From a virus, in the IMG/VR virus record IMGVR_UViG_3300031111_000011, positions 1 to 64,000 of that record: a stretch of DNA of 64,000 nucleotides; one strand, 5' to 3'. Shown piece after piece: positions 401-62,495 of the stretch (positions are counted from its first letter, which is position 1; each line of letters begins with the position of its first letter). The notes beneath the pieces were generated by a model. It was not told where the DNA came from and searched no databases. It saw nothing but the letters and a program-made list of their open reading frames with translations. A program made the position numbers and the translations under genes.

Positions 401-859
401 TCCTCATCCTCTCCGCACAAGGTGACTGGGCACCACACTGAGCCACCACTCACCCTGGTCATCATCCTGTACCACTACGACCACACCACACACAACACAC
501 TGAATACATGGCACATACTCACCTCTCACCCTGCGGTATTGTGACCACATTGTGACCTATGGTCCATAGACATCTAAAGGATCGGGAGAAGTGGGTTGTC
601 CTGGTCCTGGTATGGTCCAGGCTAATCACTGCTAATCGTGCGCCCTGGTACGTGAAATCGTATTTCATTATGACATGGCATGTGATGACATTTCACAAAA
701 AGTGTCTCACTATGTGTCTCACTGAGACAACACACCACACTAAGCACCTGATATTACAAGACCCACCTAAGTCACCTACTGGTGACTAATTACCTTCCTG
801 CATTTTATTTCATCTTTTTTGAGAAAAAGAGCATTTGTGAGGAAATCGGAGCTTTTTGT

Positions 860-875: not shown

Positions 876-1480
876 ACACACCAAAAACCGGTCCTAATCG
901 GGTCTTATCAGACTTGAGAAGTTGAGTGGGGTTGCGTATAACCAAGCCACGTTGTGAGGGAAACCACAACGGACACGGCGCAAGCCACGTCGCTCTTTTA
1001 CATAGAAGGCCACACGGGATGAGAGGCACAGGGGAAACGGTGCCAGCGAGTAAACCCCATCAATAACATCTCACCTCGTGGCGATGACAAAGATCGGCAG
1101 GGATTTCCCCTGGGGAACGGCTACCCGTCAAGGTCTACTTACTCAAGCCTCAACTTGAGACGCCCAAAATAGTGGCTACGTAGATAAACGGTTAGGGCCG
1201 AGAGCCCAAACGATAACAAAACACACTCAACACGACTCACCATAGCTTGCTTACGGAAAAGTAAGGGATGCGGATGGTGGCAAGTTACTTGCCTTAATAT
1301 CCATTGAAAGCGTCATCCATCGGAAAAGTACGGGCTTCCTGGTGAGTTGTCTCTCCTCTGCTCTCTCATTGGAACATAGAACGGCGTCCCTTTTCATCCC
1401 TTGACATGGTTTCGACTAGGTCATGCGGACAGGATATCACGCCTCGTCGGTCCTTTCGAGGGAGTTGAGGGGAAACCAAA

Positions 1481-6468: not shown

Positions 6469-6684
6469 ATGTTTTACATCAGGTTTCTTGAGCTATGGAA
6501 TCTGTCAACATCGGATTTTAGGATTTACGGGGCGACTTTTGCGACGGATGAAATCTGGTTTTTAATTGTGGAGAAAGGCCGTGGGCTCTCTCACTGGGGC
6601 CGATCTCTACAGGCCAGGATGAATCGTTACAACGGCGTTATCCACTCTGATGATCATCCCCTGAACAAACTCTATGGGAGGTAA
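6469..6684 (+). CDS. hypothetical protein (71 aa)
   Basis: AAGGAGAAG RBS then ATG. Confidence 0.5.
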   Translation: MFYIRFLELWNLSTSDFRIYGATFATDEIWFLIVEKGRGLSHWGRSLQARMNRYNGVIHSDDHPLNKLYGR

Positions 6685-6686
6685 AC

Positions 6687-6974
6687 ATGAAAGAGCATCG
6701 ATTCACCATCGAAAGTGCGGCCCAGGTCAGAGCCAAGGTCAAGGCGTTTCAGGAACTGACCGATGCCAAGAAGGTTGAGGTTCGGGTTCGAGGCCCGTTC
6801 CAATTCGACAAGTCCAAGGATCAGCCCATCTTCATTTCCGCACCGGATGGGGATCTGGTCACCGTCTCGGATAAGGCGGGGACCGCTATCCACCGAGCCT
6901 CCAAGCAGGACATCAAACTGGGGGCCAATCCCGACCTGGATTTTCCCCAGGTCTGTATTCTGCGGGTCAGATAA
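6687..6974 (+). CDS. hypothetical protein (95 aa)
   Basis: GGGAGG RBS then ATG. Confidence 0.55.
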   Translation: MKEHRFTIESAAQVRAKVKAFQELTDAKKVEVRVRGPFQFDKSKDQPIFISAPDGDLVTVSDKAGTAIHRASKQDIKLGANPDLDFPQVCILRVR

Positions 6975-7041
6975 GCTCATTTCGTGGCGGGTCCGGTCCA
7001 CTGTGACCGGATCTGTCACACACACTCGATAAGGAGGATCG

Positions 7042-7176
7042 ATGCAAATAATCTATGTACACGACCAGAAAATTGTCATCAACGACAAAACGCCCAAACG
7101 ACGTGTCCGAAAACGTGTCAAACGACTGGAACCTTACCGACGAAAGGGCAAATACAAGGATCTTTTTGTTGATTAG
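7042..7176 (+). CDS. hypothetical very basic peptide (44 aa)
   Basis: TAAGGAGGATCG then ATG. Confidence 0.4.
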   Translation: MQIIYVHDQKIVINDKTPKRRVRKRVKRLEPYRRKGKYKDLFVD

Positions 7177-7179
7177 GGG

Positions 7180-7207
7180 TTGACCTACCGCCTGTAATTT
7201 ATATCAT
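7180..7207 (+). promoter_or_regulatory. sigma70-like promoter upstream of the LuxR-type regulator gene
   Basis: TTGACC, 16-nt spacer, TATCAT; small inverted repeat GTTGAactcTCAAC between promoter and start codon. Confidence 0.4.
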
Positions 7208-7248
7208 ATTTCCAGTGAGTTGAACTCTCAACGGAAAGGGTCCAGGTC

Positions 7249-8028
7249 ATGGAAAAACTCAGAGAGGCAATGTCCAAGGTGCTACGAGACGTAGGCGAAG
7301 GGTACGAACTGTTCTTGCTGGTTACTTACCACAGTCAGACCACTGGGGTCACCATCTTGGACAAGGATCTGACCATCCTCTGGTACAACCCATATGTCCA
7401 AAAATACTTTGGCCTTGAGTTCATTAACACTAATTACCTTGACAGGTTTCCTGGGGAGCAGAGAGAGGCCACGAAGAGTCAACTGCGGCAAGCAGAAAGG
7501 ACCGGGGTCAGTGATCCTGCGCTCCTTCAGCCCCCAGGTGTTGAGATGGTTGTCGAAAGGCGCATCTGGGCAGTCTCAGGCGGGTACATCGCCGCATCCT
7601 ACGACCACACCGTACTCACTCAAGCAGAACAACGCACCAAGGATGTACAGACCACACTGACCCTCTTAGCTGAGGCGCGGGAGGGGCTGATACGGGATGC
7701 CCAACTCAAGACACTGGATATGATGGAAACTCACTGCAAGGCAATCTGCGGCAAATATGGGAACCGAAGCCCGTATGAGTGCAAGTCGAGAAAGAAAGTG
7801 CTGGCTGAGATCCTGGCAGGTAGGCCCAGGCTCCAGACCACACTCACTGACACTGAACTGGAGGTGGCTCGGCTCTACCAAGCGGGTCATCGGAGAAAGG
7901 AGGTTGCCGAGATCCTCGATGTGTCTGAGCATACGGTAAAAAATCATAGTACCTCCATCAGAAAAAAGCTTGGCATGAACAACCCAAGTGTGTCCCTTAT
8001 TGAGTATCTTCAACGGTTTACCTTATAG
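7249..8028 (+). CDS. PAS-like sensor + LuxR/GerE-type HTH transcriptional regulator (VqmA-like architecture)
   Basis: C-terminal LTDTELEVARLYQAGHRRKEVAEILDVSEHTVKNHSTSIRKKLG is a LuxR/FixJ-type HTH; N-terminal ~120 aa has a PAS-like pattern; own promoter and own transcription unit. Confidence 0.7.
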   Translation: MEKLREAMSKVLRDVGEGYELFLLVTYHSQTTGVTILDKDLTILWYNPYVQKYFGLEFINTNYLDRFPGEQREATKSQLRQAERTGVSDPALLQPPGVEMVVERRIWAVSGGYIAASYDHTVLTQAEQRTKDVQTTLTLLAEAREGLIRDAQLKTLDMMETHCKAICGKYGNRSPYECKSRKKVLAEILAGRPRLQTTLTDTELEVARLYQAGHRRKEVAEILDVSEHTVKNHSTSIRKKLGMNNPSVSLIEYLQRFTL

Positions 8029-8051
8029 GACCGGATTAGGACCAGAATGGG

Positions 8052-8082
8052 ACTTAACAAAATATTCTGGCATTGTTAAGTA
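8052..8082 (+). promoter_or_regulatory. Perfect 9-bp-arm inverted repeat ACTTAACAA-N12-TTGTTAAGT; candidate operator
   Basis: Read directly; lies between the regulator gene and the next operon. Confidence 0.5.
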
Positions 8083-8268
8083 TTTCCTAATCAGGTCGGA
8101 ACCCAGTGATTTAGAACCTTTGGAAGACGGAAGGAGGCAGACGCTCACTTAGGTCGATCTCCCATAAATGGTACACCTTGACATACGGAGATGTGAGAAG
8201 GTACAGTACGTTGCTCTGCAACTAATAGCCAGAGAGCTACTACGCACTCACCAGAAAGGGAGTCAAGA

Positions 8269-8628
8269 ATGGAGATCCAAAAGAAAAAGGCCATCAAGAA
8301 TGTTCTCACTGCTTGCAAGCTCATCCGCAAGGAATTCGGTGACCTCCCCTACCCCCAGTTAATTTGTCTGCTGGAGGTCATGGTCGAGGAAGGGATTACA
8401 AAAAACCAAATCGGGGCAAATAACGATCCGACGATGCCAGTAAGCTCTATCAACAGATATGTTGCGAGGCTCACAGACGAGCACGAGCGCAGAAACGCAG
8501 CAGGAAAGCGGGTTCCCGGTCCCCTGACAGTGGATCGAGATCCTGACCTTCCCCAACGTCACCTCGTGAGTCTGACGTCTTTTGGCAAGTTGTTTCGGGA
8601 AGCCCTGGTCAATGAAATGGAGGCTTAA
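8269..8628 (+). CDS. hypothetical protein (119 aa), possible DNA-binding protein
   Basis: AAAGGGAG RBS then ATG; ORF track. Confidence 0.5.
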   Translation: MEIQKKKAIKNVLTACKLIRKEFGDLPYPQLICLLEVMVEEGITKNQIGANNDPTMPVSSINRYVARLTDEHERRNAAGKRVPGPLTVDRDPDLPQRHLVSLTSFGKLFREALVNEMEA

Positions 8629-8849
8629 TGACCAGCCAGGAAATCACTTTTCAGTTCGATGATAACACCCTTAGTGTTGAGGTGGCAGAGGACGGGATCA
8701 ACACTGAGGGTGCGCTATTCCGCTTGAATAAGATCTCTCTGGATGATCAAGAGGAATTGGGTAAGCTCAGGCGACACATAAATGATGCGCTCACCCGATA
8801 CCAAATGCTGCTCGAAAAATATCCAGAGGCAAAGGATGGAGAGATGTAA
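8628..8849 (+). CDS. hypothetical acidic protein (73 aa)
   Basis: ATGA overlap with upstream gene. Confidence 0.5.
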   Translation: MTSQEITFQFDDNTLSVEVAEDGINTEGALFRLNKISLDDQEELGKLRRHINDALTRYQMLLEKYPEAKDGEM

Positions 8850-8866
8850 CAAAAGTGGTTTCGTGT

Positions 8867-8897
8867 GAGGAGGGGTTGGCACCTCTCCTCTTTTTTT
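8867..8897 (+). terminator. Rho-independent terminator
   Basis: GAGGAG..CTCCTC stem followed by TTTTTTT; palindrome site 2 and an RBS follow immediately. Confidence 0.55.
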
Positions 8898-8905
8898 CTC
8901 TTTAA

Positions 8906-8923
8906 CTTCTCATATCTAAGAAG
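8906..8923 (+). promoter_or_regulatory. Palindromic motif CTTCTCATATCTAAGAAG, site 2
   Basis: Directly between terminator T-run and AAGGAGG RBS. Confidence 0.5.
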
Positions 8924-8936
8924 GAGGAAAGCGACT

Positions 8937-9134
8937 ATGTCTATTTGTGATCGGTGTGCGACCGGGTGTTGGACAGCCCCGAGTGTCCGTTGTCAGGCTT
9001 GCAATGCAGGTAGTCTGTTCATTCCCAATGGGGAACCCCACAAGGTGATGCCCCCGGTGCTTCACAAGGAAACCGAGACGTTTGGGTGGATTCTCCGCAA
9101 ACAGCTTCGGGAGAGATGCTACGATGCAACTTGA
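8937..9134 (+). CDS. Cys-rich zinc-ribbon-like protein (65 aa)
   Basis: AGGAGGAAAG RBS then ATG; CDRCATGC..CQAC. Confidence 0.5.
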   Translation: MSICDRCATGCWTAPSVRCQACNAGSLFIPNGEPHKVMPPVLHKETETFGWILRKQLRERCYDAT

Positions 9135-9942
9135 CGAGCGGTACTTCGACGTTGATGCACCCCAGGACGTGACGCTTCGGTATCTTCACGAAGGGTGCAG
9201 CGACGGCAAAGATACCTGTCTGGTAGTAACTAAGACCAACAGCGGGTGGGCGTACTATTGCCATCGGTGCAAACTCAAGGGGTTCAAGCCGGTACATGGT
9301 TTGCCGCCATCGAAAGTGGCAGCGCTCTTTCGAGCGCAACAGCGAAAGCAATCCACTCTGGTACGCCAAGTTCAGCTACCCAAAGACTTCACCACGGAGA
9401 TCCCTCCAGAGGGTCTGGTGTGGCTCTACCGTGTAGGGATCACTGATTATGAGATCTCCTTCTTTGGTATTGGGTGGAGCAAGTCCTACGGCAGAGTGAT
9501 CCTGCCGGTGTACCAAGGACGAAAGCTGATTTACTGGCAAGGCAGGTATGTAGGCAAAGACGAGAGCATGGAGAAGTACGTCAACCAGAAACAAGTGGGT
9601 CGTGAGGACACCTACTTTCGGAACGAACCTCGTGTCACCTCTGGTCGAATCGTCATGGTCGAGGACATCCTGTCTGCTATCAAGGTGGGACGGGTGAGCA
9701 ACTGTATCGGACTCCTCTACGCCTACGTCCCCGATGCCCTCGTGGTCAAGCTACGTGAACGATATGATGAAATCGTGATCTGGCTGGACCCTGACAAGAG
9801 CCTCTACACACTGCGCGTCCTGAAGCGTCTCAGAGCGTTTGGGCTACCAGTCCGGAGAGTCTACTCACCGAAAGATCCAAAATATTACAACGAGGAAGAG
9901 ATCGAAAGTTTTCTGGAAGGAGGACTGAATGGGAGGACGTAA
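9124..9942 (+). CDS. DNA primase (zinc ribbon + TOPRIM, T7 gp4 N-terminal type)
   Basis: CxxC..CxxC zinc ribbon (EGCSDGKDTC..YYCHRCK), TOPRIM Glu (VMVEDILSA) and DxD (IWLDPD). Confidence 0.8.
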   Translation: MQLDERYFDVDAPQDVTLRYLHEGCSDGKDTCLVVTKTNSGWAYYCHRCKLKGFKPVHGLPPSKVAALFRAQQRKQSTLVRQVQLPKDFTTEIPPEGLVWLYRVGITDYEISFFGIGWSKSYGRVILPVYQGRKLIYWQGRYVGKDESMEKYVNQKQVGREDTYFRNEPRVTSGRIVMVEDILSAIKVGRVSNCIGLLYAYVPDALVVKLRERYDEIVIWLDPDKSLYTLRVLKRLRAFGLPVRRVYSPKDPKYYNEEEIESFLEGGLNGRT

Positions 9943-10719: not shown

Positions 10720-11713
10720 TGGCACGGTGATTTTTCTGACACCGTTTGGATCGCATCTCTACGGTACATCCACTCCGGAGTCGGATCTGGACTACAAGGG
10801 GGTGTATCTGCCGACAAAGGAGCAGATCCTGATCGGGAAGATCCCCAAGACTATCACTCGAAACACCAAGGTCGGAGAGGGGAAGAACAGCAAGGAAGAC
10901 ATTGACTTTCAACTTTATTCTCTCCCCTACTTTGTGGACCTTCTGGTCCAGGGTGAAACGTCGGCTATCGACATGATCCATGTCCGAAAGGATCAAGCTC
11001 TCGTGTGGACGGATGAGTGGGAACGGCTGCACCGCAACCGTCACATGAGCTACAGCAGAAATATGAAGGCGTTCGTCGGGTATGCCCGTAAACAAGCGGC
11101 CAAGTACGGGGTCAAAGGCAGTCGCCTTGCAGCCATGCAAGACGTCCTTGAATACCTGATGGCCTATATCCAGAAGGAGATTCTGTATGATTATGAACGT
11201 GATACCAAACTTCGAGACGTATGGGATGATCTTCCTGATGGTGATCATATTCATCGTCTTGATCCGACTGATCGAACTCCTTATCGCATGTATCAGGTCT
11301 GTGGGAAGAAGTTTATGGAGACAGTCAAGATTCGAGAAGTCTACGCTTCGATCAAGAAGTCCTATGATCAATACGGTCACCGGGCAGAACTGGCGAAGAA
11401 GAATCAGGGCATCGACTGGAAGGCAGTATCCCACGCACTCCGTGCGGCTTACCAACTGGTGGAAATCTTTGGGTCCGGGGATCTGGCCTTTCCACTCGCT
11501 GATGCGGCTTATCTGCGGAAAGTGAAGGAAGGCTCACTGGACTGGACCTCCTGGGTTCAACCCCACCTGGAGGAAATGATGGGCCGGGTGGAGTGTATGG
11601 CCTCTCTCTCCAAATTCCCAGAACAAGTGGACCGGACCTTCTGGAACAATCTGACTATCGACATCATGGAAACGTGGTTACTTACTCAAACTGTAGGAGG
11701 TGAATTATGCTGA
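10661..11713 (+). CDS. Pol-beta superfamily nucleotidyltransferase (NTP_transf_2-like N-terminal domain), about 350 aa
   Basis: FGSHLYGTSTPESDLDYKGVY matches the hG[GS]x9-13Dh[DE]h motif; start uncertain (ATG 10661 overlaps the upstream gene; an internal GTG is possible). Confidence 0.55.
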   Translation: MKLHEKVRKGGTSQLDSDINGTVIFLTPFGSHLYGTSTPESDLDYKGVYLPTKEQILIGKIPKTITRNTKVGEGKNSKEDIDFQLYSLPYFVDLLVQGETSAIDMIHVRKDQALVWTDEWERLHRNRHMSYSRNMKAFVGYARKQAAKYGVKGSRLAAMQDVLEYLMAYIQKEILYDYERDTKLRDVWDDLPDGDHIHRLDPTDRTPYRMYQVCGKKFMETVKIREVYASIKKSYDQYGHRAELAKKNQGIDWKAVSHALRAAYQLVEIFGSGDLAFPLADAAYLRKVKEGSLDWTSWVQPHLEEMMGRVECMASLSKFPEQVDRTFWNNLTIDIMETWLLTQTVGGELC

Positions 11714-12774
11714 AGAACGTGACTATTTGTGGCTACAACGTGCGTGAAATCAATCTGGTACTGGCCGAGGACAACACCCCGCTTTACTCTGTGGGAGATC
11801 TCATGATGCCCATGGGGTTCACCCGCTACTCTGCGGCATCCAGGGTCAGGTCCATCCCGGAGCTTACCCACACCAAAATCAAGCTGCCCTCCACGGCCCA
11901 GGCGATTCATGTGGTGACCCCGGAGGGTGTCCTGGCCTTAGCCGAGACGGGGAAGTGTCGTACCAATTTCGTTTCGGAATTTCGATCCTATTGCCAGAAG
12001 GAGGGCATCCCCCTGCCCGATCCGGAAGTCACGCCGGATGGTCCCGCCGTCTTCAACGGCATCGAGATCACCTTCGAGGACGATGTCCTGGTGAGCCTGA
12101 CGGACATGTGGAAAGCGGACGGATCTCGTCAGGCCAAGAAACCCGTCCACTTCCTGAAAACGGATGGGACTGTGGAGTTTATCGAACAAATTCGGGAGGA
12201 AATAAAAGGTAAGGAATCTTACCTTTTACGATCTATCCCTGGTCGAGGTGGTGGAACCTACGCTCACTGGAAGATCGCTGTCCAGTATGCGGCTTTCCTC
12301 AGCCCCAAGTTCGCAAGCTGGATGGCCGATCTGGTCCGGGTCCGGTTCATCGAGATCAACGATCCGGAGCAGGGTGCCAAGCTGTACCGGGAACGTGCGA
12401 TCACCGACCGGATGAACAAGACCGGCTGCTCCCGTGAACAGGCAATCCACTATTTCGAGAAGAGCCTCGTCGCACGAAAAACGGTTTCGTCTCAGATCTG
12501 CCGGTTCGTTCCCAATGCGAGGAAACATATCGCTGAGATCACGGATCATCTCAATATGGGCTTTATCGGAATGAGAGCCCAGGACATCAAGAAAACCCGT
12601 GGGGTTTCCCAGACCCGTGAATCGTTTACCCTTGCGGAGCAGATGGGGGTGGCGTTTCTGGAACAGTGCATGATCGATCATATCGATCAAGTGAGATACG
12701 AAGCTGACCCGTACCACCTGCGGGATATGGCGTACTCCAACGGGCAAAAATGCCGAGCCATGATGGTGCGCTAA
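11707..12774 (+). CDS. KilA-N/Bro-N type antirepressor-like DNA-binding protein
   Basis: GGTYAHWKIAVQYAAFLSPKFASWM resembles a KilA-N (APSES) domain; GTAGGAGG RBS. Confidence 0.6.
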   Translation: MLKNVTICGYNVREINLVLAEDNTPLYSVGDLMMPMGFTRYSAASRVRSIPELTHTKIKLPSTAQAIHVVTPEGVLALAETGKCRTNFVSEFRSYCQKEGIPLPDPEVTPDGPAVFNGIEITFEDDVLVSLTDMWKADGSRQAKKPVHFLKTDGTVEFIEQIREEIKGKESYLLRSIPGRGGGTYAHWKIAVQYAAFLSPKFASWMADLVRVRFIEINDPEQGAKLYRERAITDRMNKTGCSREQAIHYFEKSLVARKTVSSQICRFVPNARKHIAEITDHLNMGFIGMRAQDIKKTRGVSQTRESFTLAEQMGVAFLEQCMIDHIDQVRYEADPYHLRDMAYSNGQKCRAMMVR

Positions 12775-19669: not shown

Positions 19670-20539
19670 ATGAAACGACTTTTTTTGATCGCTCTGACTA
19701 TCCTGATGGCCTTTTCCCTCTCCGCTTGCGGAGTTTCCCACGTCGATCCCAACGAGGAACTCGCCCTGGTGAGCAAACTGGGTGACGGCAAGGGCTCCAT
19801 CCAGGTCTACGGTACCGGGTGGCAGTTTTACAACCCGCTGAAGTGGACCGGCAAGACCTTCTCCCTGGCCCGAACCACCATCAAGTGGGTGACTGAAGAC
19901 CCCAACACCGGTGCTTTCACCTTCAACAGCAGCAAGGGGCTCAAGTTCCAAGTGGATGTCGGGGCTACTGTCCAGATGCGAAAGGGTGCGTCTGCCGAGG
20001 CGTACCGACTCTACAAGAAGGACATCAACGCTGTCCTGAACTCCGACTTCGGGAACAACCTGCGGGAGGCGTTCAACGACGCTGGTTCCCAACGCGCCAC
20101 AGAGGAAATCTACGGCGACAAGAAAGCCTTCGTGGATGCTGTCGAGGAAATCATGCAGAAGCGATTCTCCGTCCTCTTCCAGGACGTGGACATTTTCCTG
20201 CTCAATGACATGATTCTCCCGCCTTCGGTCAAGGCCGGTATCGAGCGTAAGGAAGCCGCCCGTCAGAAAGCCGAGCAGCGAGAGAACGAGATCGCTGAGG
20301 CCACCGCTGACCGGCTGAAGAAACAACAGGCCACCGATGCTGTTGCCTACGAGATCGAGCGCACTGCCCAGGCCAAGGCCAAGGAGATCACCTCCATTGC
20401 CGAAGCTGAGGCGAAAGCCATCATGCTGAAACGGGCTCAGATCACCCCTGAATACGTCGAGTACGTCAAGGTCAACGGATGGGACGGCAAGCTTCCCCAG
20501 GTCACGGGAGGCGCTGGCACCCTGATCGACTTGCGGTAA
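19670..20539 (+). CDS. SPFH/band-7 (prohibitin-like) domain lipoprotein
   Basis: Lipobox LSAC at residues 17-20; band-7 core; coiled-coil C-terminus. Confidence 0.7.
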   Translation: MKRLFLIALTILMAFSLSACGVSHVDPNEELALVSKLGDGKGSIQVYGTGWQFYNPLKWTGKTFSLARTTIKWVTEDPNTGAFTFNSSKGLKFQVDVGATVQMRKGASAEAYRLYKKDINAVLNSDFGNNLREAFNDAGSQRATEEIYGDKKAFVDAVEEIMQKRFSVLFQDVDIFLLNDMILPPSVKAGIERKEAARQKAEQRENEIAEATADRLKKQQATDAVAYEIERTAQAKAKEITSIAEAEAKAIMLKRAQITPEYVEYVKVNGWDGKLPQVTGGAGTLIDLR

Positions 20540-20548
20540 CCCTCAACC

Positions 20549-20579
20549 GGGGAGGGGGAATCTGCCCCCCTCCCCTTCT
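20549..20579 (+). terminator. GC-rich hairpin (terminator-like) after the SPFH gene
   Basis: GGGGAGGGGG-aatctg-CCCCCCTCCCC; weak T-tract. Confidence 0.45.
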
Positions 20580-20671
20580 GAAAGGAAATAAAGATCCAAG
20601 ACTGTTTACCCCTCCGACTGGCATTCGAGGCATATAACACACCGTGGACTAAACCACGGAACACATACTAC

Positions 20672-21481
20672 GTGACGGAGCTTATCACTCCACCTCGAAT
20701 TGTTCAGCTTCGGACCCGACACAAGGACCGTATCCCGCTCACTTCCATCGATGATTCGGCCAAGGCACTTGAAGGTAACGGGTTCCATAGCATGATGGAA
20801 AGGTGGCTCTACCGTTCTCCCCGAAAGAGTGAGTTCCTGAACGAATTTCGTGTCTTCGACAAGATCCACGGAAGGAAGGTGGTCGGAAAACTCGATGTTT
20901 TCCATAAACCCTCCGGGACACTCTACGATTACAAATCTACGAGCATCTACAAGGCGATGTTCGGAGATGTCGAGGACTTCGAGAACCAGCTAAACATCTA
21001 CGCATGGTTCATGTCCCAGGAAGGGTACGATGTAAACGCCATCAAGGTCATCTTCTGGCACTTCATGTGGGACAAATTCCAGATGATGCGCGACCCAAAG
21101 TACCCTCGTCACAAGTATCATGAAATCGATATTCCCCTCTGGACTTTAGAAGAGAGAGAGGAGTTTCTTTTCAGCAAGGTGCGGCAGCACGTAGCGGCAG
21201 AGAGTCTTGCTGATGATGACCTCCCCTACTGCACTCCTTCGGAGATGTGGGAGAAGGACACCAAGTACGCCATCATGGAACCAGGAGCAAAACGTGCGGC
21301 GAGAGTTCTTGATACACCGGAAGACCTTGAGAAGTATGCGGAATGGAAGGAAACGTCGGGCAAACCACTCAAGAAAGGGTGGAAGATCGAAGAGCGGCCA
21401 GGGACTCGGATGCGATGTGAGCAGTTCTGCTCATGCAATGTCTTCTGCAACCAATACGCGGAGTGGCAGGGTGCGTGTTAG
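20672..21481 (+). CDS. PD-(D/E)xK nuclease, Cas4/RecB-like, with C-terminal Cys cluster
   Basis: GKLDVFHK .. DYKST motif; C-terminal CEQFCSCNVFC; GTG start uncertain. Confidence 0.55.
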   Translation: MTELITPPRIVQLRTRHKDRIPLTSIDDSAKALEGNGFHSMMERWLYRSPRKSEFLNEFRVFDKIHGRKVVGKLDVFHKPSGTLYDYKSTSIYKAMFGDVEDFENQLNIYAWFMSQEGYDVNAIKVIFWHFMWDKFQMMRDPKYPRHKYHEIDIPLWTLEEREEFLFSKVRQHVAAESLADDDLPYCTPSEMWEKDTKYAIMEPGAKRAARVLDTPEDLEKYAEWKETSGKPLKKGWKIEERPGTRMRCEQFCSCNVFCNQYAEWQGAC

Positions 21482-21962
21482 AATTCCCTCTTCTTTTCGT
21501 TCACTGGCAAAGGCGATTGAGTTTTGGGAAAACGTCCCAAAGGGGCAAAGAACAAAGGCCAATGCTCGGAGGGTAGCCAATGTTGTAGGCTATCGTTCCA
21601 TGGCTGAAGTCAAGTTTGCTGCTGATCTGAAAGCAAAGAAGATCAAGTTTGACTATGAGCCGGAGAAGTTCCAGTACATCCCACCAGCGAAAAACTACAC
21701 ACCTGATTTCCGAATCAAGAAACGAAAGCGCTCTGGTGGGTATATGTACATCGAGTTCAAAGGGAATTTCAAAGGCTCTGATCGGACCAAAATGCTCTTA
21801 GTGAAGCGGGATCACCCAGAGATGGATCTTCGGCTTGTCTTTATGAAGGCTGACAACAGACTCAATCGGAACTCGAAGACCACTTATGCGAAGTGGTGTG
21901 ACAAAAACGGATTCAAATGGGCTGATGGTGGAGTGCTGCCGGATGCCTGGGCAAAGGAATAG
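21471..21962 (+). CDS. Holliday-junction resolvase, T7 endonuclease I (gp3) homologue
   Basis: KFDYEPEKFQYIPPAKNYTPDF, VKRDHPEMDLRLVF and YAKWCDKNGFKWADGGVLPDAWAKE match T7 gp3 blocks from memory; GTG 21471 or ATG 21600 as start. Confidence 0.7.
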   Translation: MRVRIPSSFRSLAKAIEFWENVPKGQRTKANARRVANVVGYRSMAEVKFAADLKAKKIKFDYEPEKFQYIPPAKNYTPDFRIKKRKRSGGYMYIEFKGNFKGSDRTKMLLVKRDHPEMDLRLVFMKADNRLNRNSKTTYAKWCDKNGFKWADGGVLPDAWAKE

Positions 21963-21969
21963 GAGGTAC

Positions 21970-22404
21970 ATGCAACCTACCATTTACTTCAAGCAGTTGG
22001 ACAAGAGAGCCATCGTCCCTGTGTATCAGTCCCCTGGTGCCAGTGGGTTTGATTTCCATGCGCTCGACGGGGGCCAGATCCTTCCTGGTGAGATTGTCCT
22101 GTTTGAAACAGGACTCGCTTGTGAGATCCCGATTGGCCTGGAACTCCAAGTCAGACCCCGGTCTGGTCTTGCAGTGAAACACGGCATCACAGTGGTCAAC
22201 GCACCTGGGACGGTGGATTCAGATTACCGGGGTCCGATCATGGTCGGGCTGATCAACCTGGGTCGGACACACCACATGGTCAGGGCTGGAGATAGGATTG
22301 CACAGGGTGTTATCCAGGAAGTGAAAATCCCTCATATCCTTGTCGTAGAACATCTATCGGAGACGGAACGTGGATCGGGCGGTTTTGGATCAACAGGTCG
22401 ATAG
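21970..22404 (+). CDS. dut: dUTP pyrophosphatase
   Basis: RSGLA, GTVDSDYRG and GGFGSTG motifs; AGGAGG RBS. Confidence 0.9.
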   Translation: MQPTIYFKQLDKRAIVPVYQSPGASGFDFHALDGGQILPGEIVLFETGLACEIPIGLELQVRPRSGLAVKHGITVVNAPGTVDSDYRGPIMVGLINLGRTHHMVRAGDRIAQGVIQEVKIPHILVVEHLSETERGSGGFGSTGR

Positions 22405-22524
22405 AATTATCGAAGCTTCTGAGATCCTTCGTATGAAGGGTACCAGCAACCCGACCCTGGATGATCTGACAGATCTTGCCGAAGAGCTTCAAGACGTCGC
22501 TGAAATTATCACGGAGGAATACCT

Positions 22525-22701
22525 ATGAACGGAAAGAAAGCCAAAGCCATTCGGAAAGCGGTCTATCGAGATGTACCTGGAGGCTCCACTGGGGAGCAGC
22601 GCCGGTATGTCCAACACACCAAAACCAAGGTTGTCTACGTGACCGGCCATCGACGTGCCTACGTGGATGCCAAGAAACTCATCAAAGAAAGGGGGATCTA
22701 A
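22525..22701 (+). CDS. hypothetical basic protein (58 aa)
   Basis: ACGGAGGAATACCT then ATG; not in ORF track. Confidence 0.4.
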   Translation: MNGKKAKAIRKAVYRDVPGGSTGEQRRYVQHTKTKVVYVTGHRRAYVDAKKLIKERGI

Positions 22702-22916
22702 TGAAACACGCAATCAAACGCCGGGTCTTTTTCTGGAGAAACTTCAACTTCGTGATGCGGGGTTTTCGTCGGCTGAGTACCCGGCTGGAGCGGATTCAGA
22801 AGGAGCGAAAAGCGGAACTCATCGCCATGGCAATCAAGATGAATGCCCTGGAGCGGGAACATGAGGACACGTCGGTGACCCTCAAGAACCTCAAGGAGAT
22901 GTTTCCGGCCCTGTAA
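22701..22916 (+). CDS. hypothetical protein (71 aa)
   Basis: ATG overlapping upstream TAA; frame of track ORF 22476..22916. Confidence 0.45.
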   Translation: MKHAIKRRVFFWRNFNFVMRGFRRLSTRLERIQKERKAELIAMAIKMNALEREHEDTSVTLKNLKEMFPAL

Positions 22917-24823
22917 TGTTCCCAACGCTGTACCAGGAGTTCATCTACAAGCGAACCTATTCTCGGTGGCTGGATGAACTCCTTCGGAGAGAGGAGTGGG
23001 AGGACACGGTAGCTCGGTACCAAGAGTTCTTCCTGGACGGTAAACTCAAGGATATTCCCGATGCAGCTAAGGTGGAATTCCTTGAGGCTACCGGTGCAAT
23101 CTACAACCTCGAAGTTATGGGGTCCATGCGGACCCTGTGGACTGCTGGTCCTGCCTTGGCCCGTGAAAACATCTGCGGGTACAACTGTGCTTACAAGGCA
23201 GTCAATACTGTGCGAAGCTTCGCTGAGATCCTGTACATCCTGCTCTGTGGTACTGGGGTTGGGTACAGTGTGGAGCGGCAGGAGATCAACCAACTCCCTG
23301 AAGTCCCGCCTTACTTCTCCACTCCAGAACGCACCGTTGTGTTCTCTGATTCGAAGAAGGGATGGGCTGAGGGATTTCTCAAGTGGATGAACGCCCTCTA
23401 TAAGGGTGAGTTGCTTGAGTACGACCTCTCCCGAATCCGTCCTGCTGGATCACGGCTGAAGACCTTCGGGGGCAGAGCCAGTGGACCTGAGCCCCTCCAG
23501 GAACTTCTGGAATTCGCCAAACGCATTTTTCTCAGTGCCAAGGGACGGAAGCTAACGAGCCTGGAATGTTACGACATCTGCTGCAAGATCGCTGAGGTGG
23601 TTGTCGTAGGAGGTGTGAGACGGTCTGCCTGTATTTGCCTCACCAACCTGTCCGATGACCGGATGGCTAAGGCCAAGACGGGTGAGTTCTGGCTTCTCAA
23701 CCCCCAGAGATCCCTGTCCAACAATTCGGTGGCGTACACCGAGAAGCCTCAAGTGCGGAAGTTCATGAGTGAGTGGCTCAAGCTCATGGAGTCCCAGACC
23801 GGAGAGCGGGGGATCTTCAATCGAAGAGCAGCAGAGGTTGCTGTGCAGCGCACCCTACGCCGAAAGGGAGGGTTCGCTTGGGGCTGCAATCCTTGCGGGG
23901 AAGTGATTCTCCGTCCGTCTGGTCAGTTCTGCAACCTGAGCGAGGCGATCATTCGGGCTGAGGACACTCTTGAAACAATTCTCAAGAAGGTCCGATACGC
24001 AACCATCCTGGGTTGTGTCCAGGCCACACTCACTGCGTTCAAATTTCTGGGGAGTTCATGGACAGTGAACACCGAGGAGGAGCGACTCCTTGGGGTGTCT
24101 CTCACAGGTCTTATGGACCATCCAATTCTTAGTGAGGTGTCGGACAAGGCCAAGGCATGGCTTGTCAAGATGAAAGGAGAGGCCATTGAAACAGCGGAAA
24201 GGTGGTCGGAGATTCTTGGAATTCCGATGCCGAAAGCGATTACGACCGTCAAGCCGTCTGGAACAGTCAGTCAACTGGTTGACTCTGCATCCGGACTTCA
24301 CCCTCGCTTTGCTCCTTTCTATGTACGCCGGGTTCGTGTCTCTGCGACAGATCCTGTAGCGAAGATGCTTGTTGACCAGGGAGTTCCCTGTAGCCCTGAA
24401 GTCGGACAGGACACGGTAAGTCCATCCACTTGGGTCTTTGAGTTCCCGGTTAAGTCTCCGGACAACGCGAAGGTAGCCAGCGCAATCACTGCTCTGGAGC
24501 AGTTGGAGTACTGGCTGATGCTCAAACAGCATTGGTGTGAACACAACCCCTCTTGCACGGTCTATGTGGGAGAGGATGAGTGGTTGGAAGTGGGTGCATG
24601 GGTGTGGAAACACTGGGATGAGATTTGCGGTCTTACCTTCATGCCTCGCAGTGACGCAGTTTACAAACTTGCTCCTTATGAGGAGGTAGATGCGAGGACT
24701 TACTACGATCTTGTTGACGCTCTTCCTGACATCAATTTTGGTGAATTGTCTCGATACGAAACCGAAGACCTCACTGAAGGGAGCAGAGAATTCGCCTGTC
24801 AGGGAGGAGCTTGCGAACTATGA
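22916..24823 (+). CDS. nrdJ: ribonucleotide reductase, class II (adenosylcobalamin-type) candidate
   Basis: NPCGEV and CNLSE active-site blocks; N-terminal YKRTYSRW..EEWEDTVARY; 635 aa single chain with no separate radical-generating subunit nearby. Confidence 0.75.
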   Translation: MFPTLYQEFIYKRTYSRWLDELLRREEWEDTVARYQEFFLDGKLKDIPDAAKVEFLEATGAIYNLEVMGSMRTLWTAGPALARENICGYNCAYKAVNTVRSFAEILYILLCGTGVGYSVERQEINQLPEVPPYFSTPERTVVFSDSKKGWAEGFLKWMNALYKGELLEYDLSRIRPAGSRLKTFGGRASGPEPLQELLEFAKRIFLSAKGRKLTSLECYDICCKIAEVVVVGGVRRSACICLTNLSDDRMAKAKTGEFWLLNPQRSLSNNSVAYTEKPQVRKFMSEWLKLMESQTGERGIFNRRAAEVAVQRTLRRKGGFAWGCNPCGEVILRPSGQFCNLSEAIIRAEDTLETILKKVRYATILGCVQATLTAFKFLGSSWTVNTEEERLLGVSLTGLMDHPILSEVSDKAKAWLVKMKGEAIETAERWSEILGIPMPKAITTVKPSGTVSQLVDSASGLHPRFAPFYVRRVRVSATDPVAKMLVDQGVPCSPEVGQDTVSPSTWVFEFPVKSPDNAKVASAITALEQLEYWLMLKQHWCEHNPSCTVYVGEDEWLEVGAWVWKHWDEICGLTFMPRSDAVYKLAPYEEVDARTYYDLVDALPDINFGELSRYETEDLTEGSREFACQGGACEL

Positions 24824-24966
24824 AAATGATTCTGGAGTACGTCGCAGGGATTTTTATCTCACTTGGGGCCATCATCGGAGCGGGTGCGGTGATGGTTATT
24901 GCAACTTTGGCCGCAACGTGGCCCTTTTGGGTTGCTCTTGCCTGTATCGTTTACATCTTCTTTTAG
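24820..24966 (+). CDS. small hydrophobic membrane protein (48 aa); holin candidate
   Basis: ATGA overlap with RNR stop; almost entirely TM. Confidence 0.4.
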   Translation: MKMILEYVAGIFISLGAIIGAGAVMVIATLAATWPFWVALACIVYIFF

Positions 24967-24975
24967 GAGGCCAAC

Positions 24976-25080
24976 ATGACAATCGAACGCTTTATGGAGT
25001 GGGTCATGGTGGGGATCATCGTTGTTGCGGGGATCTTCATCACTCTCGGTATCGACTCACTCTCCAACATCCTGAGTTAG
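24976..25080 (+). CDS. small membrane protein (34 aa); holin/antiholin candidate
   Basis: AGGAGG RBS then ATG; one TM. Confidence 0.35.
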   Translation: MTIERFMEWVMVGIIVVAGIFITLGIDSLSNILS

Positions 25081-25089
25081 GAGGTGGCC

Positions 25090-25329
25090 TTGAATCAGAA
25101 GGGATTCACTTTGATCGAACTGATGATTGTGGTTGCGATCATTGGGATCTTGGGCGCTGTGGCCGTCCCCAATCTCGTTTCTTACAAGCAGAAAGCGGAG
25201 TCGGCAGCACTGGAAATCAAGATCAACCGAGAGAACATGAAAAAGGCGGGGGAGGATCTGAGGGACACCTTCAAGTCCCTCCTCCCCCGGAAGACTTACT
25301 CGAACGAAGTTATTGTGACAAGGGAGTAA
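25090..25329 (+). CDS. type IV prepilin-like protein (class III signal peptide)
   Basis: AGGAGG 6 nt before TTG; MNQKG|[24 protein letters not shown] is a canonical prepilin leader plus N-terminal helix. Confidence 0.55.
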
Positions 25330-25331
25330 CA

Positions 25332-25862
25332 TTGGCAATTGACAAAGACCAGATGCGAGATCTGGTTCGGGATGTCCTGATGTACCTGGACCCTGAGATC
25401 CCCTTCTCTGCTGATGCAGTGGAGTTGATCATGCTCACTATGGCTCAGGAATCCCACATGGGAACATACATTAAGCAGCTTGGTACAGGACCGGCCAAGG
25501 GTGTGGTTCAGATGGAACCCTCTACTGAGGAAGACATCTGGGACAATTACCTGCGGTACAAGAAGGATCTGGCAACTAAGGTACGTGCGCTCTATGCAGC
25601 CATGCAAATCGGGCGTGACTTTGAGCTTGATCCTCTTCGACACAACCTCGCCTACCAGATCGCCATGGCGAGGGTTCACTATCGGAGAGTGAGTGACCCT
25701 CTTCCCAAGGTCCATTTCCAACTTCAGTTTGAGGCTGATGGGATCATCACAGAGAACAGTGTGAAGCGACTCGCTGAGTATTGGAAGGAGCATTACAACA
25801 CACCACTTGGAAAGGGAAAACCTGAAGAGGCGGTGTACAACTATGTGAGGTTCGCTGTATGA
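25332..25862 (+). CDS. lytic transglycosylase (SLT-domain) endolysin candidate
   Basis: MAQESHMG..GTGPAKGVVQME matches the SLT ES..G..GA.GLMQ signature; TTG start after AGGGAG. Confidence 0.55.
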   Translation: MAIDKDQMRDLVRDVLMYLDPEIPFSADAVELIMLTMAQESHMGTYIKQLGTGPAKGVVQMEPSTEEDIWDNYLRYKKDLATKVRALYAAMQIGRDFELDPLRHNLAYQIAMARVHYRRVSDPLPKVHFQLQFEADGIITENSVKRLAEYWKEHYNTPLGKGKPEEAVYNYVRFAV

Positions 25863-26383
25863 GGAACTGCGATAACTGTCGGTACTTAGAGGTTTCTCTA
25901 CGGGATGAGCCGTGCTTCGGGTGTGTAGGGTACAGTAACTGGAAACCCGAACTCCCTCCCAGTGGAGAGGGACAGAAAGGACGAGAAGTAATCGTGAATA
26001 ACTGTGTTCTCCCCGACAGCGGGAAACGAGAAGGGTTCGATAGTGGATCGATTCGAGATAGCCGAGAAGGGAAAGGCCGGTACGATCTGATCAGCCCCTT
26101 CGCTCTGAAGCGGATCGCAGTCCACTACGAAAATGGTGCCAAGAAGTACGCTGACCGGAACTGGGAGAAAGGCCAACCGATCATGCGGTACTTCGACAGT
26201 GCCGTGCGTCACCTCTTCACATGGGTCACAGACAAACTCTGTGGCCGTCCCCATGCGGAGGATCACCTCGCTGCTGCGGCCTGGAACGTCATGGCAATGC
26301 TGGACCACGAGGAACGTATCGCTATTGGCCGACTCCCTACCGGGATCGATGATAGCCCTGGTCCTGCATGGAAGCCCGAATAA
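25859..26383 (+). CDS. hypothetical protein; possibly the dATP/dGTP diphosphohydrolase-associated N-terminal domain family
   Basis: RYDLISPFALKRIAVHYENGAKKYADRNWEKG recalled as a hallmark of that phage domain family; uncertain. Confidence 0.4.
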   Translation: MRNCDNCRYLEVSLRDEPCFGCVGYSNWKPELPPSGEGQKGREVIVNNCVLPDSGKREGFDSGSIRDSREGKGRYDLISPFALKRIAVHYENGAKKYADRNWEKGQPIMRYFDSAVRHLFTWVTDKLCGRPHAEDHLAAAAWNVMAMLDHEERIAIGRLPTGIDDSPGPAWKPE

Positions 26384-26394
26384 ACAACCCACTG

Positions 26395-26422
26395 GAAGGG
26401 GCATATATTTTTTGCCCCTTCC
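26395..26422 (+). terminator. 10-bp GC hairpin (GGAAGGGGCA..TGCCCCTTCC) with a T-rich loop
   Basis: Read directly; immediately followed by palindrome site 6 and the RBS of rtcB. Confidence 0.4.
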
Positions 26423-26438
26423 TTCTCAATATTGAAAA
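26423..26438 (+). promoter_or_regulatory. Palindromic motif TTCTCAATATTGAAAAG, site 6
   Basis: Abuts the AGGAGG RBS of rtcB. Confidence 0.45.
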
Positions 26439-26446
26439 GGAGGACT

Positions 26447-27661
26447 ATGGAAAAGGTCATGTTTTCATCAGGCAGAATCCCTGCCTACTCATGGTTACCA
26501 GTGGACAAACTGGAGGAAGGCGCTCTGGAACAGATCCAGGCTTGCACTGCCCACCCCAAGGCTTACCACCACATGGCTGTGATGCCCGACTGTCACCAGG
26601 GATATGGGATGCCCATTGGCGGTGTGGTTGCCCTGGACGGCGCAATCAGCCCCAACATGGTGGGGGTGGACATCGGCTGTGGGATGAGTGTGGTCCGCAC
26701 CAACGCCAAATTCGTTCACACTTATCAAATCAAGGAAATCCTGAACCGACTCAAGACCATGGTTCCTGTCGGTGAGGGGAAGTTTCGATCTGACCCCGTC
26801 TCCTGGCCCAAGTGGGTGGAGTATCTGGACAAGGTCAAGGAGCGTCCTGACTGGATGAAGGGCTCTAACTGGCATCGGTTCAAGTGCAGCATGGGAACTC
26901 TGGGAGGTGGGAACCACTTTCTGGAGCTTCAGCGGGATGAAGAGGGTTACCTCTACATGATGCTCCACTCCGGTTCCCGTGGCCTGGGGTACGCCATTGC
27001 CAAGTACTACAACGAACTGGCCCAGACCTACTGCGTCAACCTAGACATCCCCAACAAAGATCTGGCTTACCTGCCGACCGATCACAAGTGGGGGCAAGCC
27101 TACATCCGGGACATGAACTTCGCCCTGGCTTTTGCCAAGGAAAACCGCAGGGTCATGATGGATGCCTTCAAATTCGCTTTCTTCCACGTTCTTGGATCTC
27201 CTGTCCGGGAGGACATTGATGTTGTCGATGAGATCGACATCCACCACAACTACGCGGCATTGGAGCACCACTTCGGCAAGGATCTGTGGGTTCACCGGAA
27301 AGGCGCGACTTCGGCCCAGTCTGGACAACTGGGGATCATTCCCGGTTCCATGGGAACCCACTCCTACGTCGTCGCTGGTAAGGGGAACCCGGACTCCTTC
27401 AAGTCCTGCTCCCACGGTGCTGGTCGAGTGAAGGGTCGGATGGCCGCTACTCGTGAACTCGACCGGATGGAGCAGGAGAGGAAGATGGACGGCATTGTCT
27501 TTGACGGGTTCAAAACCCTGAAGAAGGGTAAGCTGAAAGGTGCGTATGACCTGGGCGAAGCCCCTGATGCCTACAAAAATATTGATACTGTCATGTGGCA
27601 CCAGGGGGATCTGGTGGACGTGGTAGTAAAACTCAAACCGATAGGAGTCTTGAAAGGGTGA
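26447..27661 (+). CDS. rtcB: RtcB-family RNA 3'-phosphate ligase
   Basis: DIGCGM, GGGNHFLELQ, HNYAALE and HRKGAT blocks; about 404 aa. Confidence 0.85.
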   Translation: MEKVMFSSGRIPAYSWLPVDKLEEGALEQIQACTAHPKAYHHMAVMPDCHQGYGMPIGGVVALDGAISPNMVGVDIGCGMSVVRTNAKFVHTYQIKEILNRLKTMVPVGEGKFRSDPVSWPKWVEYLDKVKERPDWMKGSNWHRFKCSMGTLGGGNHFLELQRDEEGYLYMMLHSGSRGLGYAIAKYYNELAQTYCVNLDIPNKDLAYLPTDHKWGQAYIRDMNFALAFAKENRRVMMDAFKFAFFHVLGSPVREDIDVVDEIDIHHNYAALEHHFGKDLWVHRKGATSAQSGQLGIIPGSMGTHSYVVAGKGNPDSFKSCSHGAGRVKGRMAATRELDRMEQERKMDGIVFDGFKTLKKGKLKGAYDLGEAPDAYKNIDTVMWHQGDLVDVVVKLKPIGVLKG

Positions 27662-28053
27662 TCCTTGACCACGAAAAGCTCTACGAGCATTCCGTAGAGT
27701 ATTGGGCGAAGCATAGACCTGACCCTCATCCGAGGGTCTTCTATGTGATGCTCGATGTTGCGAATCTTCTTGTAAAAGCAGGAGTAACAAACTGCCTCTA
27801 CGATAGATACAAACATCGAAGATTGGGGATGCACGTACCATACAAGTATGTGCTCACTCTTTCCGAGCCGGAAATTGAATCTGCGTTTAAGAAGAGGTTC
27901 TGTCATCTCAAGAAGGAGGATTCCGGCACGGAAACCTTCTACGCAACCAAGGAGCTACGGGACTGGATCGAGTGGGTTCAAGGTCTTCAAAATGCCAATC
28001 TTCTTCCGTTTGAAATCAGACACCGTATCTGGGAATCCCTCGAAGTGAAATGA
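27658..28053 (+). CDS. hypothetical protein (131 aa), GTG start
   Basis: GTG overlaps rtcB stop; frame of track ORF 27595..28053. Confidence 0.45.
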   Translation: MILDHEKLYEHSVEYWAKHRPDPHPRVFYVMLDVANLLVKAGVTNCLYDRYKHRRLGMHVPYKYVLTLSEPEIESAFKKRFCHLKKEDSGTETFYATKELRDWIEWVQGLQNANLLPFEIRHRIWESLEVK

Positions 28054-30821: not shown

Positions 30822-30834
30822 AAGGAGGAAACAA

Positions 30835-35940: not shown

Positions 35941-36106
35941 TCTACCTCCTTTCGTGGGGTAACAAACCCCGGTTTGATTGTGACTTTCTTGTGACTTTTG
36001 GCCCGTCATGACTTACTGCAATAATTCAATTTTTCAAGTCTGGGCAAATATAACAACTCCGCAAACCTTTGTCAATAGCGAACTTCTCGTGTGTTATCAG
36101 TACCTT

Positions 36107-62493: not shown

Positions 62494-62495
62494 TG

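Follow-up and report, generated by a model that had tools for sequence, protein, structure and literature searches.

The window analysed here is a 64,000 nucleotide (nt) stretch of viral DNA, positions 1 to 64,000 of the IMG/VR virus record IMGVR_UViG_3300031111_000011. It encodes a 259 amino acid (aa) protein with an N-terminal PAS sensor domain and a C-terminal LuxR-type helix-turn-helix (HTH), and a row of direct heptamers begins exactly at the stop codon of its gene, as it does in each of the seven independent loci that encode this protein or its close relatives. We would interpret the protein as a signal-gated one-component regulator that acts on the stop-anchored heptamers, controls the adjoining promoter and operon and is tied to lysogeny control, a reading to which we give a probability of roughly 55%; the assignment at the level of the protein, as a PAS-LuxR regulator, is safe.

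The seven loci are the window, L004, L006, L178, L179, L003 and the pair L007 and L008, which has identical heptamers and is counted once, and in seven of seven a direct heptamer row with an 11-bp period (7 + 4 bp) runs from the stop codon of the regulator gene (Table 1). The stop codon itself forms the first three bases of the first heptamer in all seven, with the repeat at +11 and usually also at +22. Summed over the loci, heptamer identities come to 40/49 at offset 11 and 30/49 at offset 22, with 24 at offset 21 and 4-15 at all others, against a mean of 1.77/7 at 591 control open reading frame (ORF) stops, which gives a binomial p of ~2e-16 for offset 11 before allowing for the choice of offset. 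The heptamers also tend to follow the recognition helix of the protein, as P0011 and P0014 have identical helices and both have TAGTACC, the helices of the window protein (P0001) and of P0002 are almost the same and TAGGACC is the heptamer in each case, and P0004 has a different helix and the heptamer TAACCCY. Between L007 and L008 the regulator and the heptamers are the same and the MarR-like and integrase genes differ, and therefore the repeats travel with the PAS-LuxR gene. Stop-anchored heptamers are absent at both of the bacterial PAS-LuxR loci examined, neither of which shows a prophage module.

The best promoter-like pair 3' of the array has its -35 at +28 and its -10 at +51/52 from the stop codon in five loci (the window, L004, L006, L178 and L179), and in L007 a TATCAT at +62 corresponds to the -10 shifted by 11 bp, that is, one repeat further. 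From these alignments we would regard the heptamer-promoter architecture as statistically strong. A separate observation at 10781-10840 of L007 and L008 is that the DNA of L007 and L008, in which the regulator is identical, stays identical to ~+55 past the stop, the position of the -10, and that beyond this point the MarR-like genes, the integrases (389 vs 380 aa) and the host flanks all differ, which amounts to a module swap exactly at the promoter.

Table 1. Heptamers and promoter-like hexamers downstream of the regulator gene in the seven loci; offsets are counted from the stop codon.
Locus	Heptamer at 0	Heptamer at +11	Heptamer at +22	-35	Spacer	-10
Window	TAGGACC	TAGGACC	TGGGACT	TTAACA	18	AAGTAT
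L004	TAGGACC	TAGGATA	TAGACCT	TATACA	17	TATAAT
L006	TAGTACC	TGGTACA	TGGTACT	TATTCA	17	TATAAT
L178	TAGTACC	CGGTACC	weak	CTGACA	17	TATCAT
L179	TAGTACC	TAGTACC	weak	CTGACA	17	TACTTT
L003	TAGTACA	TAGTATA	TAGTCAT
L007 = L008	TAACCCC	TCACCCT	TAACCCT

An array that lies upstream of and abuts a weak -35 is the usual geometry of activator-dependent promoters such as those with Pho boxes or LuxR, NarL or BvgA sites, and since the window array abuts a weak -35 in this way we consider activation more likely than repression. The layout of the array is, from general knowledge, similar to that of Pho boxes and of the NarL and BvgA heptamer sites, where 7-bp direct repeats with 4-bp spacers (an 11-bp period) stand against a weak -35, and the NarL heptamer TACYYMT resembles the TAACCCT of L007. 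The likeness does not extend to the proteins, as PhoB is a winged-helix response regulator and the window regulator has no phosphorylation receiver domain; high-affinity NarL sites are, furthermore, inverted 7-2-7 sites.

The 13-mer TCCTAATCNGGTC, which is the two-heptamer unit, has three exact copies in the window and none in shuffled sequence, and the copy furthest from the regulator, at 890-907, lies 6 nt upstream of TTGAGA(914-919)-17-TATAAC(937-942), hexamers that were read by eye. Positions 1-1541, in which this copy falls, form ~1.5 kb of ORF-poor sequence between the minus-strand tRNA and packaging genes and the first plus-strand early ORF and are likely to be an early control or origin region. 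The same region is dense in short direct repeats (CAGTATCTGAC at 368 and 388, ATTGTGACC at 538 and 549, TATGGTCCA at 558 and 611) and hairpins with T-runs at 93-117 and 1480-1503. Related heptamer pairs with 11-bp spacing number four against 1.2 expected, a weak excess, and no clustering of GGWCC was found. A further copy of the 13-mer with two mismatches at 34619-34631, which by eye appears to fall within a short ORF immediately downstream of the integrase gene, is at chance level and was discarded.

These early-region sites could also suit a different role, that of a lysogeny-maintenance or other repressor acting on iterons in the early region and at its own 3' end and silencing lytic or recombination genes until a signal arrives. 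Such a repressor would fit with the copy at 890-907 and the related pairs at 540-620, with a regulator gene that has its own host-type promoter, with an integrase-proximal module in the prophages and with the fact that the window was not seen to contain a classical CI/Cro pair, although no systematic search for one was made. The arrays, however, abut the weak -35 from upstream and leave the -10 and the transcription start uncovered, and we think a repressor of this kind rather unlikely.

A perfect 9-bp-arm palindrome lies immediately beyond the array and had been placed at 8052-8082 in the original prediction, which took it as a candidate binding site of the regulator; the palindrome is there, though it ends at 8081, with 21 bp between the centres of its half-sites. 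The window has 33 perfect 9-bp inverted repeats whose loop is <=20 nt, against 6.5 +/- 2.8 in shuffles, and taken alone this one is not exceptional and not beyond chance. It is conserved in none of the other six family loci, and its half-site was rejected as a regulon motif because it is not enriched in the window (five matches at <=1 mismatch vs nine expected). At L004 2110-2152, ~300 nt past P0002 and ahead of the Xis-like and integrase genes, there is a 15-nt-arm palindrome, GTATTTTTGCAACAA-N13-TTGTTGACAAAATAC, which overlaps a TTGACA and has its AACAA...TTGTT core and its spacing in common with the window palindrome; the AACAA...TTGTT pattern has a single occurrence in the 64-kb window and a single one in the 4-kb L004 locus. 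The window palindrome could be incidental, could serve the MarR-like protein as an operator over the core promoter, or could form a 3' RNA hairpin together with its outer arms.

MarR-family proteins commonly autorepress via palindromes over their own promoters, and the arms of the window palindrome cover the -35-like and -10-like hexamers in front of a MarR-like ORF. Autorepression of the MarR-like protein through this palindrome, with the PAS-LuxR protein using the heptamers, would be compatible with the regulator acting as we propose, and is a tentative possibility, the least improbable of the alternatives considered here. The centre-to-centre spacing is nevertheless long for one MarR dimer, no comparable palindrome is found in L007 or L008, which carry phrog_9665 genes, and L004 has its similar palindrome yet no gene of that family.

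A longer inverted repeat, 8029-8041/8085-8097 (69 nt), encloses the palindrome; it begins 1 nt past the stop codon and as RNA folds at -24 kcal/mol (z = -2.9), none of 200 shuffles folding as well. As the regulator gene has no other terminator, the repeat could act in the transcript as a 3' stem-loop, whether as a stabiliser, a terminator lacking a U-tract or an RNase III site, with no DNA binding involved. We judge this unlikely: there is no T-run, Rfam gives zero matches in 6500-9500 (and sub-threshold noise only in 1-1700), and a conserved 3' hairpin was rejected when the equivalent regions of L004, L003, L007 and L179 folded no better than shuffles (z +0.5 to -0.6) though the direct repeats are kept there. 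Furthermore each outer arm is itself a two-heptamer unit, of which a lone copy stands at 892-904.

That the gene encodes a PAS-like domain joined to a LuxR/GerE HTH, as first proposed, is well borne out. The GerE/LuxR HTH (PF00196) is found by Pfam at residues 198-246 with 46.4 bits against a cut-off of 23.5 (E 3e-12), and the HTH matches GerE, NarL, RcsB and EL222 among PDB sequences. In the single-sequence Pfam search the PAS domain (residues 27-86) reaches 21.2 bits, slightly under the threshold of 22.6, but the assignment holds because the relatives, the family profile and the AlphaFold2 (AF2) model agree. The relatives score above threshold for the PAS, PAS_4 and PAS_9 models; the family profile matches solved PAS domains (MmoS 3ewk, ARNT2, LOV2 and DosP) at E 1e-5 to 1e-3 over positions 16-146; and the AF2 model, built from a 20-sequence alignment with a predicted local distance difference test score (pLDDT) of 85.7, has cap helices (2-27), a five-stranded PAS core (32-119), a helix (121-166), a lower-confidence hinge and the HTH (195-255). 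The top Foldseek matches of the model in the PDB are LOV-kinase chimeras and YF1, in which a PAS domain is followed by a long J-alpha helix. On profiles and predicted structure together, the PAS assignment is confirmed.

The protein has only three cysteines, C163, C167 and C178, which all lie in the hinge beside H162, and residues 1-162 are free of cysteine. C167 and C178 are invariant among the aligned subfamily members, and the HC-x3-C-x10-C motif of the hinge is missing from the aligned bacterial relatives. A LOV photosensor of the EL222 type was ruled out, there being no flavin-adduct cysteine in the PAS core and all three cysteines lying outside it. Haem PAS sensors of the FixL and EcDOS type carry their proximal histidine on the F-alpha helix, and this possibility was likewise rejected as the helix at 70-85 (EQREATKSQLRQAERT) has no histidine. 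In a distant branch of the subfamily (P0009, P0011, P0014, P0151 and P0020) two Cys-Pro dipeptides, LCPxK..R...CPAI, stand in place of HC-x3-C-x10-C, the Cys-Pro dipeptide being the core of haem-regulatory motifs. It is conceivable, if improbable, that the hinge (C167 and C178, joined in this branch by H162 and C163) works as a redox, metal or iron-sulphur switch that reads the redox or oxygen state of strictly anaerobic Desulfobacterota hosts and activates the MarR-like/integrase module via the heptamers; if true, this would be a switch for lysogeny or excision that is independent of SOS and gated by the environment, with an origin independent of that of VqmA-phi.

The long signalling helix and the cysteine hinge set the window protein apart from VqmA, which to our knowledge has neither the 45-residue helix nor the hinge. 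The two are alike in being single chains of ~235-260 aa with an N-terminal PAS domain and a C-terminal LuxR-type HTH, a description that holds for VqmA-phi and V. cholerae VqmA, and like VqmA-phi the window protein is phage-encoded and would be expected to activate an adjoining gene that feeds the lysis-lysogeny decision. Full-length Foldseek matches of the model include the phage VqmA 7dwm (rank 7, E 1.2e-5), V. cholerae VqmA (6ide, 6ugl and 6kju) and EL222, at 14-17% identity. The VqmA organisation seen in the original prediction thus stands as architecture. It does not stand as homology, as hhalign aligns the family profile with VP882 VqmA (gp56) over 50 HTH columns only (203-252, probability 90%) and BLASTP of the regulator against VP882 VqmA gives no match, and this combination therefore means a VqmA architecture without VqmA family membership. 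The profile check proposed for the N-terminus came out in the same divided way, PAS structures being matched and VqmA not appearing among the best 60 of the 174 family-profile matches in the PDB sequence search. On these alignments the regulator is unrelated to VqmA beyond HTH and architecture, and of separate origin.

The more specific proposal makes the protein a VqmA-type receptor for an autoinducer of the host like 3,5-dimethylpyrazin-2-ol (DPO), a receptor which binds as a dimer to the 9-bp-arm palindrome and switches on a Qtip-like antirepressor; this proposal can draw on the shared architecture and the VqmA fold matches, and also on the palindrome of L004, the locus of the closest homologue. 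We nonetheless hold it to be very improbable, given the HTH-only alignment, a fold-match identity of 14-16% and the spacing, missing conservation and half-site count of the palindrome described above. VqmA has a GG-N6/N9-CC palindromic operator, the candidate operator in the window is a direct heptamer row, and no PvqmR- or Pqtip-like operator was found in the window at <=3 mismatches (operator sequences from PMC8284805). In VP882 the gene for Qtip (gp55, 79 aa) is divergent from gp56 and sits beside telN, and the target of VqmA-phi is a divergent antirepressor encoded by a small ORF (smORF), its known modules being confined to closely related VP882-like linear plasmid phages (PMC12802170); in the window all neighbours of the regulator are co-directional, the target is MarR-like and the phage uses an integrase and is no telN linear plasmid phage. 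The VqmA residues that contact DPO are F67, F99 and K101 (10.1101/2019.12.19.881847).

Other systems resemble the module in part. In TF-smORF modules a small gene decides the fate of the prophage independently of SOS and is controlled by a transcription factor that the phage encodes next to it, in some cases one of LuxR type (Silpe et al. 2023, PMC10432266), and the regulatory logic proposed here is similar; the small gene of those modules is, however, divergent and encodes an antirepressor without a known domain, where the window has a co-directional 119-aa putative DNA-binding protein and a 73-aa protein. EL222 (LOV-HTH; PDB 3p7n and 8a5r) also joins a PAS-family sensor to a LuxR-type HTH in one chain and was found in both the sequence (HTH) and fold searches, but the window protein lacks its flavin-binding cysteine and has a much longer linker.

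A HMMER search of 1.84 billion representatives yielded seven other full-length homologues of the regulator (P0002, P0003, P0004, P0007, P0009, P0011 and P0014), with 28-41% identity and lengths of 255-265 aa; ranked lower are HTH-only matches, P0020, which is a C-terminal fragment, and a small number of longer PAS-LuxR proteins from bacteria. A word-indexed protein search with the window regulator returned the self-match alone, and another such search added a further member, P0151. By these searches the subfamily has ~10 members, including the window protein, P0151 and the fragment P0020, and is rare and restricted to phages and prophages. Pattern scans of IMG/VR, JGI metagenomes and GTDB genomes gave HTH-level matches only and no new loci, tblastn against GenBank phages gave a single match at HTH level, the viral structure library BFVD has no full-length PAS-LuxR match, and a literature search found no description of this phage PAS-LuxR subfamily.

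The next relatives are longer bacterial PAS-LuxR proteins, of which the named ones come from Smithellaceae, Desulfobacterales and 'Proteobacteria' metagenome-assembled genomes (MAGs), and the descent of the regulator points to host-type PAS-LuxR regulators. The closest in sequence are uncharacterised PAS-(coiled coil)-LuxR regulators of Smithellaceae and Desulfobacterales MAGs (P0152-P0186), which have the same order of PAS domain, helical linker and HTH and the same C-terminal signature, NHRxSIRKKLGI....NL..YL, but lack the C-x3-C-x10-C hinge and are mostly longer, with extra PAS domains.

The original prediction had further supposed that the small genes downstream could include a qtip-like effector. 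The genes at 8269-8849 and the promoter-like element before them do exist, but the first probably encodes a MarR-like protein and is co-directional with the regulator gene. The 119-aa product matches phrog_9665 ('transcriptional regulator') at E 3.2e-7, and the 113- and 117-aa partners in L007 and L008 at E 3.5e-17 and 2.5e-13. Its MarR_2 score is 19 bits, under the cut-off of 27, BLASTP gives no match between it and the L007 and L008 partners, and a single-sequence AF2 model (pLDDT 48) is too poor for a structure search; it is linked to those partners by the shared PHROG and by a three-sequence profile that matches the MarR-family structures 3bpv and MexR at E 7e-4 to 0.02. Family membership and profile matches together suggest that the first downstream gene encodes a DNA-binding protein and not a Qtip-like peptide. 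The 73-aa protein found no family match in the library searches.

In four related elements (L003, L004, L007 and L008) the regulator homologue adjoins an integrase. The order in L004 (P0002) is XRE, PAS-LuxR, HTH_17 (Xis-like) and integrase, and in L003 (P0009) the gene is divergent from an exonuclease/HTH_17/integrase block and heads a rightward replication operon. L007 and L008, which encode the identical protein P0004, have T7-type packaging genes, small ORFs, PAS-LuxR, the 113- or 117-aa gene, an integrase and then host genes, and are taken to be integrated prophages because the contigs that carry them are bacterial and 529 kb and 236 kb long; the purA that flanks L007 shares 90% identity with its counterpart in a Desulfobacterales MAG and 75% with that of Desulfonema magnum. 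As the same promoter position in the related prophages precedes a MarR-like gene and then an integrase, the module most likely couples a physiological cue of the host to lysogeny and recombination decisions.

The window gene has, as first suggested, its own sigma70-like promoter site, and an opposite-strand promoter-like site, TTGAGA-17-TATGAT at 7203-7231 (-), 10/12, overlaps it, with no minus-strand gene nearby. At L007 9755-9826 a 16-nt inverted repeat (GCCGGCCTTTTGACAT / ATGTCAAAACGCCGGC) flanks a near-consensus TTGACA-17-TATACT ~210 nt upstream of the P0004 gene and may serve as operator for the promoter of the regulator itself.

We would envisage that oligomers of the regulator bind the TAGGACC direct heptamers head-to-tail and that the bound regulator, directly upstream of the weak -35, controls a promoter from which the MarR-like gene and orf73 are read. 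The PAS domain, the cysteine hinge or both would set the activity of the regulator, the cue being something that could be a PAS ligand or the redox or metal state at the hinge. The output would govern the MarR-like/integrase module and perhaps the early region via the site at 890-907, a copy that would tie the regulator to early control.

Several observations count against this scheme. The window hexamers at +28/+52 are weak (8/12), and 100 nt beyond them, at 8178-8207, there is a promoter that fits the consensus better. The copy at 890-907 is inverted relative to the adjoining plus-strand promoter-like site. The covariation of helix and heptamer is imperfect and comes from seven loci only, P0003 having a helix similar to that of P0001 and yet the heptamer TAGTACC. 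The PAS residues are weakly conserved in the family, D38 and W45 alone being invariant, and the PAS domain may therefore serve dimerisation and not ligand sensing. Finally, the integrase of the window is 26 kb from the regulator gene, so that the link to lysogeny in this phage comes from the relatives only; a link to lysogeny control, as originally suggested, is plausible, and the integrase and KilA-N genes invoked for it are indeed encoded (Table 2).

Table 2. Features of the window that bear on the regulator, its candidate sites and the phage.
Feature	Position	Strand	Basis or remark
Two looser 11-bp-spaced heptamer pairs	540-620	.	TGTGACC twice 540-557; GGTCCTG/GGTCCAG 603-620
Third two-heptamer copy (GGTCCTAATCGGGTCTTA on + strand)	890-907	-	in the ORF-poor region before the first early ORF
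Promoter-like site before regulator gene, sigma-70 type	7180-7207	+	TTGACC-16-TATCAT; 10/12, consensus match only
PAS-LuxR one-component regulator gene, 259 aa, ATG start	7249-8028	+	ORF, Pfam, homologues, AF2 model
PAS sensor core, residues ~28-120	7330-7608	+	AF2 strands 32-38, 42-46, 91-93, 102-109, 112-119; PAS matches
Long helix 121-166, J-alpha-like (PAS kinase signalling helix)	7609-7746	+	AF2; Foldseek
Hinge with H162, C163, C167, C178	7732-7782	+	alignments
GerE/LuxR-type HTH, residues 195-255	7831-8013	+	Pfam, PDB sequence matches, AF2
Three direct heptamers, candidate operator	8026-8054	+	TAGGACC 8026-8032; TAGGACC 8037-8043; TGGGACT 8048-8054
Copies of TCCTAATCNGGTC	8029-8041, 8085-8097, 892-904	-, +, +	exact matches in the window
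Palindrome ACTTAACAA-N12-TTGTTAAGT	8052-8060/8073-8081	.	arms overlap -35-like/-10-like hexamers
Putative regulated promoter	8054-8083	+	TTAACA 8054-8059, AAGTAT 8078-8083; 8/12, weak
Inverted copy of the two-heptamer unit (TCCTAATCAGGTC)	8085-8097	-	outer right arm of the 69-nt inverted repeat
Second promoter-like site, upstream of MarR-like gene	8178-8207	+	TTGACA-18-TACAGT; consensus match
Probable MarR-like winged-helix protein, 119 aa	8269-8628	+	phrog_9665; downstream partner common to window, L007 and L008
Acidic protein, 73 aa (orf73)	8628-8849	+	start overlaps preceding stop (TAATG)
Intrinsic-terminator-like hairpin and T-run, strong	8867-8900	+	closes the two-gene unit; terminator at 8867-8890
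KilA-N protein gene	11707-12774		present in the window
SPFH/Band 7	19670-20539	+	auxiliary gene
B12-type ribonucleotide reductase (RNR)	22916-24823	+	auxiliary gene
RtcB RNA ligase	26432-27661	+	auxiliary gene
NAMPT	28874-30322	+	auxiliary gene
ATP-dependent DNA ligase	32130-33398	+	auxiliary gene
Tyrosine integrase	34648-36009	-	phrog_1, E 6e-31 over residues 46-424

The window makes up most of a ~67-kb phage sequence, which was recovered in one ENA assembly and partly in one Logan assembly, and megablast with 20 kb of it found no DNA-level relative among GenBank phages. Terminase, portal, capsid and internal virion protein genes are on the minus strand, and genes for primase, a DnaB-like helicase, DNA polymerase A, RNR, RtcB, NAMPT and ligase on the plus strand; the combination of auxiliary genes spanning 19670-33398 (+) was judged unusual for a phage of such size. 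In the integrase ORF Phage_int_SAM_1 scores above its cut-off and the catalytic Pfam domain at 24.6 against a cut-off of 27.1, with zero matches to PDB sequences. The phage also carries an array of 12 tRNAs at 62077-63735 (-), for Gln, Asn, Lys, Ile, Val, Arg (two), Thr, Gly (two), Ala and Asp, and a 2234-aa protein at 36987-43694 (-) with LPD38 and DUF7178 domains, which over its last 700 residues matches PHROGs 9854 and 18222, two families with no assigned function.

Taken as we propose, the window protein and its relatives would add to VqmA-phi (PMC12802170) another family of phage-borne PAS-LuxR sensors, the second so far and of independent derivation, which is found in integrase-type phages and prophages, at least one of them within a Desulfobacterales genome. 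The candidate operator and promoter are sharply defined (7+4 repeats, -35 at +28, -10 at +51), which makes the DNA-binding part testable in E. coli without culture of the host. If the hinge or the PAS domain does sense redox state or a metabolite, temperate phages of anaerobes would be reading the physiology of their hosts beyond SOS and quorum sensing.

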